NCBI GenBank assembly: GCA_027036135.1
Contig: JALVSY010000007.1
Location: 548,880 to 612,879, forward strand
Source of the DNA: Pyrodictiaceae archaeon
GTDB lineage: Archaea > Thermoproteota > Thermoprotei_A > Sulfolobales > Pyrodictiaceae
Reading direction: 5' to 3'
Length of the DNA: 64,000 bases
Position 1 is the first letter of the stretch. Each line of letters opens with the position of its first letter. Positions 8,177 through 10,961 of this stretch are shown here, piece after piece. The notes under the pieces were generated by a model that made no database searches, was not told where the DNA came from, and saw nothing but the letters and a program-made list of their open reading frames with translations. The position numbers and the translations under genes were made by a program.

Positions 8177-8479
8177 ATGGATGCGATAAGCCGCCTAGTA
8201 GACACCGTGTATACTGCCCTCAGCGTGGTGAGGAATGCCTGCAGAGACCCATGTACTAGGACTATTTGCGAAGAACTAGAGGATGCACTAATGCTCCTCC
8301 TAGACGAGGCTGGCGACACGGAGCAAGTAGCACCAATGGCTCTCCGCGCCGTGGAGCAAGCGGCAACGGCTCTTACAGAGGCAGCAGAGAAGGCTAGGAG
8401 GAATGGCTGTAGCCGCGCAGCAGTATTGTTCGAGCAGGCCGCGGAGCTTCTACGCAGCATAATACATAGTACCGTATAA
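8177..8479 (+). CDS. Hypothetical helical protein
   Basis: ATG with GGAGG upstream; Ala/Glu-rich with 4 Cys; host-like codon usage. Confidence 0.6.
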   Translation: MDAISRLVDTVYTALSVVRNACRDPCTRTICEELEDALMLLLDEAGDTEQVAPMALRAVEQAATALTEAAEKARRNGCSRAAVLFEQAAELLRSIIHSTV

Positions 8480-8574
8480 TTGAATACTATGGGGATAGGC
8501 TTATATAGAAGACTATAACCTATACTAGCCAGGAATACAGAGTAGCAATACTCCGCATATAATGGTGATATAAA

Positions 8575-9107
8575 ATGGTAGATGATATATATATATATCT
8601 AGGAGAAAATTTCTAAGCGGCCTCATTGCCTCATCAGCTTTAGTATTTCTATCCCCTATAGTTTCAACCGCTAGAAGTCTTAAGCCGCAAGAAAACGCTG
8701 GCCTAAAGATTGAAACCTCTATCGAGGGTGTGAAGGAATTTAACTTTGACCTCTATAAGCTACTCTACATAAAAAGCCATACCATAGTATCCCTTAAGGG
8801 ATTAAAGAAATATGATGCCAAGGTATCAGCTTTTACTCTAAGAGGCATTGTAAATGGTATGATGGAGCCTTCTATATTGTTTATAGATGAGAGCACTAGT
8901 GGTAAAACAACTATAATAGCCTATGCTGATGATGAGGAATACATGATAAAAAGCATTAATAAATCACAGCCTACCACTAAGAAAGTAATACTATCATTAC
9001 TAAACTCTATAGAAAGTGAAGCATCAAATAAAGGATTTAAAAAGCTAGTTAGATACATTGATATAATAAAGAAAAGTATAGAAGTAATTAAAGGTGATAC
9101 CCTATGA
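8575..9107 (+). CDS. Putative Tat-exported protein; N-terminus disconnected from its ATG by an (AT)7 tract (ORF track starts at 8730)
   Basis: The frame of 8730 extends upstream to 8598 as SRRKFLSGLIASSALVFLSPIVSTA. ATG 8575 (GGTGA upstream) comes into frame if one AT unit is removed. Confidence 0.65.
8585..8598. repeat. (AT)7 microsatellite
   Basis: ATATATATATATAT between ATG 8575 and the twin-arginine codons. Confidence 0.85.
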
Positions 9108-9364
9108 CAAGCAAGGACGAGTTAAAAGCATTTTATATCGAAGAAAAAGATGTAGATGCCTATAATACACTATTTAGTAGAATTAGTGATATTGATGATC
9201 TTGATAAGAGTCCTAATATAGAGCCGGAGACATTTGTTGCACCAGTTACGGCAATTGTCTATGTAATAGGTCTTCATGATGTGATTATTGCTTTGAACTA
9301 CGGATTTTATGTTAACGCAGCCGTATATGAAAACTTATATAAATGGGTTCATGTATGGGGATAA
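9104..9364 (+). CDS. Putative RiPP precursor peptide (acidic leader plus hydrophobic NX5N core)
   Basis: 86 aa; leader rich in D/E; core FVAPVTAIVYVIGLHDVIIALNYGFYVNAAVYENLYKWVHVWG; GGTGA SD; ends 3 nt before the radical SAM gene. Confidence 0.8.
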   Translation: MTSKDELKAFYIEEKDVDAYNTLFSRISDIDDLDKSPNIEPETFVAPVTAIVYVIGLHDVIIALNYGFYVNAAVYENLYKWVHVWG

Positions 9365-9367
9365 GCT

Positions 9368-10387
9368 ATGATCCCTCGGCAAATTTCAATTATTTTCACG
9401 TATAAATGTAATTTCTTTTGCGATCATTGTTCCATGATGGCGTCTCCTAGCGAAAACATGGTTTTTGATTTTAGTCTATTTAAGAAAATTATTGATGAAG
9501 CGCGTGAAATCCCCTCAATATATACTATAGTGTTTACTGGTGGAGAACCAACACTTTATTTCAAGAAACTTTTACGATTTATAAACTATTCTTATGAGAA
9601 CGGTTTCAATACCCGCTTAATCACAAATGCTTGGTGGGCGTATTCGTACTCTTCTGCACTATCTATGGTACGTGAGCTAAGAAAGTCTGGCTTAAGAGAA
9701 ATTAACATAAGTTTTGATGATTTCCATTATTATTGGCTTAAGAAATATTATAAAGGCGAAGAAAATCTAGTAAATGCCGTCAAAGCCTCTCTTGAAGAGG
9801 GGCTTCGTACACTAATTGCTATAGCACGCTATAGTAGTGGTCAGAAAATAACAAAAAGTTATGTAGTAAATCTATTAAAGAAAGAAGGAGTGGATTTCAA
9901 AAGGATAATAATTTCTGAGGGGTATATATCGAAAATAGGACGAGCACTAAATGTACATACGACGTTCAATAGAGATGACTTAAATATTTTAAGAAACGAG
10001 GTTAGGAAACCATGTACCGAAATAGGTACTACAATAACGATTAAGCCGGATGGTAAAATACTTGCGTGTTGTGGGCATATAATTAGAACCAAAGCAGCTG
10101 ATCTATTTGAGGTTGGTAACGCGTATAACGATAGTCTTCGTGAAATCATTAAACGTCTATGGAGAAATATTCTCTTTTGGACAATTTATCTTAAGGGACC
10201 ATATTATGTACTAAAGAATATACTAGAGACAAATGATAATATAGAGGATAATTTTATCAGTAAATGCGAGATATGCTATCTTCTAGGAACAAAATTTAAA
10301 TCTAAACTTATTAATTATTTCTATAAGAATAAATATAATATAATTAATAGTCTAAGGATATATTATAAGGGATATAAAGATGAATAA
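9368..10387 (+). CDS. Radical SAM protein, YydG/EpeE peptide epimerase-like
   Basis: C14-x3-C18-x2-C21, FTGGE, TNAWW, ISFDDFH, C216, C234-C235 and C300-x2-C303. Confidence 0.85.
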   Translation: MIPRQISIIFTYKCNFFCDHCSMMASPSENMVFDFSLFKKIIDEAREIPSIYTIVFTGGEPTLYFKKLLRFINYSYENGFNTRLITNAWWAYSYSSALSMVRELRKSGLREINISFDDFHYYWLKKYYKGEENLVNAVKASLEEGLRTLIAIARYSSGQKITKSYVVNLLKKEGVDFKRIIISEGYISKIGRALNVHTTFNRDDLNILRNEVRKPCTEIGTTITIKPDGKILACCGHIIRTKAADLFEVGNAYNDSLREIIKRLWRNILFWTIYLKGPYYVLKNILETNDNIEDNFISKCEICYLLGTKFKSKLINYFYKNKYNIINSLRIYYKGYKDE

Positions 10388-10961
10388 GAAAGAAATATTC
10401 TTTATTTTAAGTTCTCTGGATGTTGGTAAGTATATGTATACAAATGCTAAGGTTTTATTATTTGCTATTATACCGATGATTGTAATAGCGGTAATAGTTT
10501 TTGTTACGGGCTTGCTTCAGTCTCCCGCGCTTCTGCATAACTTGGAAGCTGTTGTAACCTTTTTTGCTATTTTTGCTTTTATTGTTATTTTCCCTTTTAT
10601 TACCGTCTATATTAGTAGTGGGCATCGGTATATAGGTTACTGGGCCGAAGATTGTACTCTTTACGTAAGAACCATGGGTACTCTGAAGATTCCGCTTGAT
10701 AAGGCAGAGGTTCGTCTTGTGCCTTATGAGGAGTATAAGCCGGTGCTTCGTACGTGGGGTGTTGGTGTTCCTGGTATGGTGTATGGAAAGGTTATTCTAC
10801 GTGGTGGGAGAAAAGGGATAGCTCTTGTGTTTCGGCCGCAAAAGGACGCGATACTAATAACGTATCAGAACATGACTATTGTTATATCGCATCCAGGTAT
10901 TAGGGAGAGCTATGAGAAGTTGTTGAGATACCAGGAGGCGTGTATTAGGCGTGGTGGTTAG
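10380..10961 (+). CDS. Membrane protein with bacterial PH-like domain (candidate immunity protein)
   Basis: Two TM helices followed by LRTWGVGVPGMVYGKVIL, a bPH_5-like motif; overlaps the rSAM stop. Confidence 0.7.
   Translation: MNKKEIFFILSSLDVGKYMYTNAKVLLFAIIPMIVIAVIVFVTGLLQSPALLHNLEAVVTFFAIFAFIVIFPFITVYISSGHRYIGYWAEDCTLYVRTMGTLKIPLDKAEVRLVPYEEYKPVLRTWGVGVPGMVYGKVILRGGRKGIALVFRPQKDAILITYQNMTIVISHPGIRESYEKLLRYQEACIRRGG

Follow-up and report, generated by a model that had tools for sequence, protein, structure and literature searches.

An (AT)n tract ahead of a putative twin-arginine signal peptide is a candidate slipped-strand switch in a Pyrodictiaceae archaeon

We analysed a stretch of 64,000 nucleotides (nt) of DNA from a Pyrodictiaceae archaeon (GenBank assembly GCA_027036135.1, contig JALVSY010000007.1, positions 548,880 to 612,879 of the forward strand). 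We call this whole stretch the window, and positions without a contig name are those of the window. The subject is the head of one open reading frame (ORF), which we call ORF1, where a perfect dinucleotide repeat lies 10 nt after an ATG that is led by a Shine-Dalgarno sequence and directly before codons that appear to encode a signal peptide of the twin-arginine translocation (Tat) type. ORF1 heads a four-gene cassette on what appears to be an acquired island of low guanine-plus-cytosine (GC) content. The genome assembly to which the window belongs (G000) has 40 contigs that total 2.2 Mb, at a completeness of 99.6%, and in Rfam clan competition it matches the archaeal small-subunit ribosomal RNA model (1463.5 bits) and the archaeal large-subunit model. 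The features at the head of the gene are as follows, with n standing for the number of AT units.

8564..8569, plus strand: Shine-Dalgarno-like GGTGAT, with a 5-nt spacer to the ATG at 8575 and complementary to the 3' end of 16S ribosomal RNA
8575..8577, plus strand: first ATG, in frame with the signal peptide at n = 3, 6 or 9
8582..8584, plus strand: second ATG, in frame with the signal peptide at n = 5, 8 or 11
8585..8598, no strand assigned: (AT)7 dinucleotide tract, the proposed slippage site, read directly from the sequence
8586..9107, plus strand: ORF1, 173 open codons, with no in-frame ATG, GTG or TTG before 8730
8598..8672, plus strand: putative Tat-type signal codons, comprising SRRKFL and a hydrophobic region (h-region) GLIASSALVFLSPIV, ending STA

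At n = 7, the length found in the window, the frame of the first ATG reads MVDDIYIYLGENF and ends after 13 codons at a TAA (8614-8616), and the frame of the second ATG reads MIYIYI and ends after 6 codons at a TAG (8600-8602). The third frame is shut by a TGA at 8583-8585 and is then open for 173 codons, from 8586 to the stop at 9105-9107, starting YIYISRRKFLSGLIASSALVFLSPIVSTARS. A first-pass annotation of this DNA had described such a hidden frame, with the ORF called at 8730 being open up to 8586, reading SRRKFL and lacking an in-frame ATG, and had stated that ATG 8575, with its GGTGA Shine-Dalgarno sequence, leads to an early stop. Reading of the sequence confirms both statements, and we also found that the 3' end of 16S ribosomal RNA in G000, ...GGATCACCTCC, pairs with the GGTGAT at 8564-8569. 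The length rule given in the same annotation is likewise borne out by frame arithmetic: (AT)6 connects the signal peptide to ATG 8575, (AT)5 or (AT)8 connects it to ATG 8582, and with 4, 7 or 10 units neither ATG is in frame.

A mechanical list of ORFs gives GTG 8730 as the only start of ORF1, for a product of 125 amino acids (aa), and the public protein call P0002 does likewise. The gene as called is therefore 48 codons too short and lacks the signal peptide, and the annotation is corrected accordingly. None of 20,000 mononucleotide shuffles leaves the full frame open (13.6 stops on average), and among the five remaining reading frames of this segment four contain 19-25 stops and one reverse frame contains 3. 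Given this intact frame, ORF1 is not a decayed gene, unlike the second copy of the cassette in the archaeal genome G409 (L022, G409:C1:1264848-1268117), in which ORF1 lies in two pieces with stops and the radical S-adenosylmethionine (SAM) enzyme gene is split into parts of 240 and 66 aa.

Long AT repeats are rare in this genome. The 64-kb window contains no second instance of (AT)6 or longer, and 0 of 100 shuffles produce one. Across the whole 2.2-Mb genome, AT/TA tracts number 1317 at 3 units, 99 at 4, 8 at 5, none at 6, 1 at 7 and 3 at 8. Two of the four tracts of at least 7 units stand at the heads of two paralogous copies of ORF1. The (AT)7 tract is more than a chance feature.

The second copy was found by a six-frame search of the genome and lies on contig C30, with 37% protein identity to ORF1 by search and 40% in the alignment. 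Its surroundings are also low in GC (33.4%), and the gene order there is ORF1, ORF2, the gene for a protein with a bPH domain, and the radical SAM enzyme gene. The tract is an (AT)8 (L002 1983-1998, equivalent to G000:C30:287261-287276) that lies 10 nt after an ATG, as in the window gene. The two heads align base for base as GG(T/A)GA, 5 nt, ATG, 7 nt, (AT)n, C and the codons for SRRKF(L/I)SGL, with the GGAGA of the paralogue at the position of the GGTGAT of the window gene. The frame of the paralogue's ATG at n = 8 reads MLTDIYIYIKTKVYKRP... to a stop, and this copy is also off at n = 8 because it has only one start frame. In a comparison of the two genes at the DNA level, the tract and the twin-arginine (RR) stretch are the best conserved part, with 22-23 of 30 positions matching in segments across 8581-8625 vs 297 of 586 overall. 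A perfect repeat of 14-16 nt in both diverged copies therefore points to selection or to constant regeneration of the repeat. The first-pass annotation had looked to related genes as a check on its proposal, and the paralogue retains both the AT tract and the RR motif. Neither off copy carries any other lesion in its 173 codons.

Each of the two genes is also represented by an allele in which the frame is joined. The protein cluster of the paralogue has five members, of which four (P0004, P0027, P0028 and P0029) start inside the signal at MHLL and one, P0030, is in frame, reading MLTDIYISRRKFI and, with the residues that precede it, ...MLTDIYISRRKFISGL. From SRRKF onwards all of the 167 residues of P0030 match the paralogue; thus, the tract changes faster than point substitutions accumulate. 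The cluster of the window gene at 90% identity likewise has five members. Two of these (P0002 and P0031) start at the GTG, two are shorter pieces and one, P0032 (173 aa), starts MIYISRRKFL, which is the on phase from ATG 8582, and has 2 changes in 169 residues relative to the window protein.

The allele evidence at the DNA level comes from Logan contigs rather than reads. The sequencing runs that contain this DNA are labelled as hydrothermal-vent metagenomes, and no RNA run is listed among them. Contigs of four of these runs were compared, and in three of the four a contig crosses the tract. The contig of run X2 (depth 74, possibly the source run) and that of run X3, from another study, both carry (AT)7 and show zero differences from the window. 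In the contig of run X5, 4 bases are absent at 8585, which leaves (AT)5 and places ATG 8582 in frame, and there are 8 substitutions over 8383-9168. The contig of run X4 begins 2 unaligned letters before 8585 and does not bridge the tract, which may be due to a contig break where the tract is polymorphic. A search of metagenome contigs with a degenerate nucleotide pattern built on the tract-signal junction gave no further alleles, in a set that may omit records near the window genome. Both loci are thus known in an on and an off phase in near-identical backgrounds, and the lengths 5, 6, 7 and 8 all obey the frame rule. The variation in tract length that had been predicted from the window alone is therefore observed across assemblies, with n = 5 vs 7 for the window gene and n = 6 vs 8 for the paralogue.

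The same contigs bear on the simplest explanation of an out-of-frame tract, which is an error of assembly or sequencing in place of a true (AT)6. Dinucleotide repeats are error-prone in sequencing, and the first-pass annotation had listed this option. However, (AT)7 is identical in contigs of two runs from different studies, X2 and X3, one of them at depth 74, and the frame offset in the paralogue is not the same. We regard an error as barely credible.

It is also conceivable that the tract phase is irrelevant because translation begins elsewhere, either at an ATA inside the tract (8589 or 8595) or at GTG 8730, the latter giving a protein that has no signal peptide. In-frame ATA codons are present in both copies, and gene callers choose GTG 8730. 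Nonetheless, the ribosome-binding site is placed for ATG 8575, and the natural alleles use ATG, so the ATA start once considered for this gene is not needed. The called GTG is not conserved, since the substitution 8732 G>A turns it into GTA in the X5 strain, and its position falls within the conserved fold; at the corresponding site the paralogue lacks a GTG, and its callers use an ATG inside the signal. Moreover, homologues conserve the RR and the h-region as protein. Another start is on these grounds very unlikely. ATG 8575 is probably the ancestral start, given that the MVDNI start of the homologue in the archaeal genome G030 matches the MVDDI of the ATG-8575 frame.

A recoding mechanism would make the off copies productive as they stand. 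If the ribosome or the RNA polymerase slipped by one AU unit, a +2 shift would restore the frame at n = 7 and a -2 shift would restore it at n = 8. Each off copy is exactly one unit from an on phase, and a 2-nt shift inside the tract re-pairs perfectly (UAU to UAU, AUA to AUA). Against this, slips in opposite directions would be needed in the two copies, and recoding is not required, because natural alleles are directly in frame. No stimulatory RNA fold was found downstream of the tract (z-score +0.83), and the available portion of the recoding review PMC5009743 offers no dinucleotide precedent. We judge recoding as the basis of expression to be quite improbable, and a 2-nt slip may still allow leaky expression of off alleles.

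We next consider the peptide that the tract precedes. The Tat consensus is S/T-R-R-x-F-L in the n-region, and rules of the TATFIND type ask for at least 13 uncharged residues after the RR. The window gene has SRRKFL and the paralogue SRRKFI, and P0032, P0030 and the homologue P0005 each have 21 uncharged residues after RR-K, with mean Kyte-Doolittle values of 1.7-2.0 (from an h-region table of 22 rows, 6 of them left out). The genome encodes TatC (113 bits) and two TatA proteins (67.5 and 63.8 bits), and TatC is present in G030 too. The RR is kept in all 5 of the other cassette copies of the phylum whose heads were read (G030, G360, G409, G526 and G581). The nearest ESM Atlas clusters are Tat-signal proteins (score 0.82, at the level of a lead only). 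The initial reading of this segment as a Tat signal fits these data, and we conclude that there is good but not conclusive support for the N-terminus of ORF1 being a Tat-type signal or signal anchor.

Taken together, a perfect repeat lies at the 5' end, the number of its units shifts the start relative to an intact gene, and on and off alleles occur in near-identical sequences, which are the marks of a contingency locus. We therefore favour, with fair rather than high confidence, the reading that this is a simple-sequence contingency locus in an archaeon, with translational phase variation by slipped-strand mispairing. Slipped-strand mispairing during replication would add or remove AT units and so give rise to heritable, reversible on and off lineages, at a rate that would be raised. 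With 6 or 9 units, ATG 8575 would be joined to the signal peptide. With 5 or 8 units, the joined start would be ATG 8582, whose spacing from the ribosome-binding site is poor and which would probably give weaker expression, and with 4, 7 or 10 units neither start would be joined. In the form present in the window, ribosomes would run into a stop codon after 13 or 6 codons, and no exported protein would be made. The cassette on C30 would be the same switch, set to off at n = 8 and having a single start frame. The on form would presumably be expressed and exported through Tat. In the off phase ORF2, the next gene, may be translated less, by way of the ATGA overlap at 9104-9107. The pay-off could lie in switching a part of a modified-peptide system, one that is costly or exposed at the surface.

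The alternative with the most in its favour is ordinary strain polymorphism or inactivation. On this account the tract is simply a mutable spot, frameshifts have knocked out both copies independently, the in-frame alleles are the functional ancestors and nothing switches reversibly. It would explain why most database entries are out of frame and why contigs of two studies share the consensus n = 7, and it sits well with an accessory island whose slot in G011 holds a different gene of 581 aa, and with the decayed cassette in G409. It is harder to reconcile with a perfect long tract in both paralogues despite roughly 60% protein divergence, where the tract is the best conserved DNA of the gene, in a genome whose AT/TA tracts include none of 6 units and just 4 of at least 7. 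Nor would one expect on this account that neither off copy has another lesion in 173 codons, or that the on and off alleles of the paralogue are identical at 167 of 167 residues. We consider polymorphism unlikely, though it deserves real weight.

Several points weigh against a contingency locus and temper our confidence in it. The evidence comes from contigs, and a slower on/off polymorphism would give the same picture. There is only one on entry for each gene and most database entries look off, as slow inactivation would also produce, and P0032 and the X5 contig may come from the same data. For the paralogue's on allele, the reading of P0030 implies (AT)6, a length deduced from the protein. 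The shared n = 7 in contigs of two studies indicates a tract stable enough for one consensus across samples. The (AT)5 on form uses ATG 8582, which sits 12 nt from the ribosome-binding site. As for the signal peptide, the Pfam family TAT_signal (PF10518, 21 positions, with filters that drop weak matches) does not match P0032, P0030 or P0005 at E up to 10, and the family member P0006 reaches 13.8 bits against a cut-off of 22.7. Of the 21 family members whose N-terminus is present, 9 show the RR at the corresponding alignment position, and the other 12, which are more distant, lack it. Finally, the two remaining (AT)8 tracts of the genome are intergenic (G000:C7:60372-60387 and G000:C16:479248-479263), so long AT tracts in G000 are not all coding switches.

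Those two intergenic tracts also raise the question of whether the tract in ORF1 acts on transcription, as the TATA box or spacer of an internal promoter, with its coding position being incidental. One of them lies about 57 nt before an ATG, and cassettes of another genus, g116, have a poly-A run of 7-10 units just before the ATG of ORF1. The tract in ORF1, however, has conserved coding features on both sides, with an ATG 10 nt before it and SRRKF immediately after it, and an RNA that began about 25 nt further downstream would not reach a start codon until 8730. A promoter element is thus highly improbable here. As a separate observation, one of the intergenic (AT)8 tracts precedes a 264-aa ORF and a gene for an ABC-transporter ATPase, and the ORF whose ATG follows the other encodes a membrane protein. 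A T17 run is present at G000:C7:347214-347230, and it and the intergenic (AT)8 tracts may be promoter-level repeats.

Phase variation by repeat slippage is a textbook bacterial strategy that has been studied almost wholly in pathogens and commensals. In Haemophilus influenzae lic1A, which encodes a cytoplasmic enzyme of surface modification, a (CAAT)n repeat with alternative ATGs gives strong, weak and off states. The window gene is like lic1A in that one repeat puts either of two starts in frame, here ATG 8575 or ATG 8582, and unlike it in that the repeat of lic1A is a tetranucleotide and its host a bacterium. In Helicobacter pylori oipA the repeat lies in the part of the gene that encodes the signal sequence, and hopZ and sabA are similar CT-repeat genes. 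The oipA repeat is a CT dinucleotide in the 5' region, and switching occurs by slipped-strand mispairing (PMC10564699). As in oipA, a dinucleotide repeat at the 5' end is proposed here to set the frame of an exported protein by its number of units, and oipA is the closest analogue. The differences are that the repeat is AT and not CT, that the organism is an archaeon from vent metagenomes rather than a host-associated bacterium, that the signal is of the Tat type, that the gene heads a radical SAM cassette, and that switching is a proposal here.

Repeats near the 5' ends of genes are hotspots of insertion and deletion in prokaryotes, archaea included (PMC3315296, PMC2831843). One of these two surveys covers repeats in 42 species, among them Sulfolobus islandicus (PMC3315296), and the other covers homopolymer tracts in 18 archaeal genomes (PMC2831843); the available portions of both give pooled statistics and no worked archaeal locus. 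Literature searches found no worked archaeal contingency locus, although supplementary tables could list such loci. A 2025 review of phase variation lists its distribution in archaea among the matters for future work (PMC11868660). The slipped-strand mechanism is known from bacteria, and the value of this locus is that of a concrete archaeal case. This case can be checked, as it consists of two proposed paralogous switches with on and off alleles in public data and a clear frame rule. More tentatively, and with less than even confidence, we propose that this is the first worked simple-sequence contingency locus in Archaea, in which a vent archaeon would set a Tat protein to strong, weak or off by slippage of (AT)n in two paralogues, each at the head of a YydG-like peptide-modification cassette, as bet-hedging over a surface-exposed or antagonistic peptide system.

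We turn to the ORF1 protein itself. A profile search of 1.84 billion proteins returned 24 relatives at E up to 0.001, of about 150-210 aa. No Pfam or NCBIfam family matches any of 23 members, and the scattered single matches at E 0.0005-0.005 are attributable to chance; the weak rows that the family scan gave for P0032 were put down to chance as well. One relative, P0005, is 44% identical and starts MPIYISRRKFL, which is an intact head. A word-indexed protein search with ORF1 found only its own shortened form, and scans of viral, metagenome and genome contigs, made with protein alignments or with P0006 as the query, found no ORF1 relatives. The AlphaFold2 model of ORF1 has a mean predicted local distance difference test (pLDDT) score of 90.3 and consists of an N-terminal helix, a six-stranded antiparallel sheet and two C-terminal helices, which suggests that ORF1 is an alpha/beta protein of an unnamed family. 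Comparison of the model with solved structures gave no convincing relative, the best Foldseek match having an E of 0.06 and the best VIA-align match a Z of 6.4, which is within the stated background.

The family alignment (A3) leaves out P0019, which has 1636 aa and nine short stretches, and also P0002 and P0004, which are shortened forms of the genome's own two copies. The 12 distant members that lack the RR keep the uncharged stretch and an (A/S)PxLSxAR motif. In this alignment, many RR-less members have a conserved KD(N/I/V)(R/K)E(L/I) about 10 residues before the hydrophobic stretch, and (A/S)PxLSxAR follows that stretch in all. The N-terminus of ORF1 may thus have a role beyond export targeting.

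The remaining genes of the cassette follow ORF1 closely on the same strand.

9104..9364, plus strand: ORF2, 86 aa, whose start overlaps the ORF1 stop (ATGA, 9104-9107), with GGTGAT and a 5-nt spacer in front
9368..10387, plus strand: radical SAM/SPASM enzyme, YydG-like, with the Pfam domains Radical_SAM, Fer4_12 and SPASM
10380..10961, plus strand: bPH_5-domain membrane protein, whose gene closes the cassette and with which the low-GC island ends

ORF2 has a conserved N-terminal part and a variable, hydrophobic, Val/Ile-rich C-terminal part, and it aligns with the ORF2 of the paralogous cassette and of G030. Family scans gave no match for it, and we regard it as a candidate precursor or membrane peptide. 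In the X5 strain, 185 bases of ORF2 (9168-9354) are swapped for 164 other letters, a difference of 21 that keeps the frame, and the start of ORF2 and the whole of ORF1 are near-identical despite the changed core. A conserved head with a hypervariable core is the pattern that would be expected of a modified-peptide precursor or of a polymorphic membrane peptide.

The radical SAM enzyme scores 97.7 bits over its full length against the YydG model TIGR04078, for which the cut-off is 300, and its closest solved relative is YydG (8ai6, E 2.5e-18). By sequence comparison it is a relative of YydG that is not filed as a member of that family. YydG acts on a small peptide, in which it epimerises Ile and Val (PMC5682303). 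The window cassette is like yydFGHIJ of Bacillus subtilis in that a YydG-related radical SAM/SPASM enzyme is preceded by a small gene whose C-terminal part is hydrophobic and Val/Ile-rich. It is unlike yydFGHIJ in the score just given, in the absence of a match to a YydF-like precursor family, and in having neither the YydH protease nor the YydIJ transporter, and its ORF1 and bPH protein have no counterpart in the yyd operon. The first-pass annotation had placed the tract at the head of an operon for a ribosomally synthesised and post-translationally modified peptide (RiPP). The relationship of the enzyme to YydG makes a RiPP operon plausible, and with a score below the family cut-off it is a candidate assignment.

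The GC content of the window cassette is 34.7%, vs 56-58% in its flanks. No att-like boundary was found among the direct and inverted repeats around the island. There is a direct repeat of 14 nt, TATGGGGATA(G/A)GCT, that matches at 13 of 14 positions and occurs at 8488-8501, upstream of ORF1, and at 9354-9367, immediately ahead of the radical SAM gene's ATG; this repeat may be due to chance. In G011, a complete genome of the same genus, the region that corresponds to 8177-10961 of the window (L028, G011:C1:832700-835600) keeps NadA, the small ORF and the 3'-phosphoadenosine 5'-phosphosulfate (PAPS) reductase gene. There an unrelated 581-aa gene of normal GC fills the slot, which is flanked by the PAPS-reductase gene and by the homologue of the 100-aa ORF at 8177-8479. 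From these comparisons the cassette slot appears to be a variable slot that carries an accessory island. Run X5 also contains a contig of 89% identity that diverges after 8461.

Among 29 genomes of the family and 351 of the class, copies of the ORF1 family were found only in the genome's own two cassettes, in G030 and, as a weak match, in G012. The G012 match is a 270-aa ORF with no cassette around it and was dropped as spurious. G030, which belongs to another family of the same class, has the whole cassette, with ORF1, ORF2, the radical SAM enzyme, the bPH protein and a CPBP protease. Its ORF1 has an intact head that starts MVDNIKDRDINPFIKIARREFL, and the layout of its start codon is TTG-MVDNIKDRDINPFIKIARREFLKGL behind GAGGT. 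A family of the same phylum has the cassette as well: 5 of its 23 genomes carry it, G360 among them, and these five belong to a single genus. A CPBP protease is encoded in the G030 and G360 cassettes and not in the window cassette. At least three lineages of a single archaeal phylum thus carry this unnamed four-gene radical SAM cassette. The poly-A runs of the g116 cassettes lie 2-4 nt before the conserved ATG of ORF1 and about 18-20 nt after a TTAAAAA box. Their lengths in four genomes are 10, 8, 8 and 7 (L017 2021-2030, L018 2027-2034, L019 2035-2042 and L016; alignment A7). If the tentative reading as an archaeal contingency locus holds, this different repeat in front of the g116 cassettes would hint at more than one origin of variable cassette expression.

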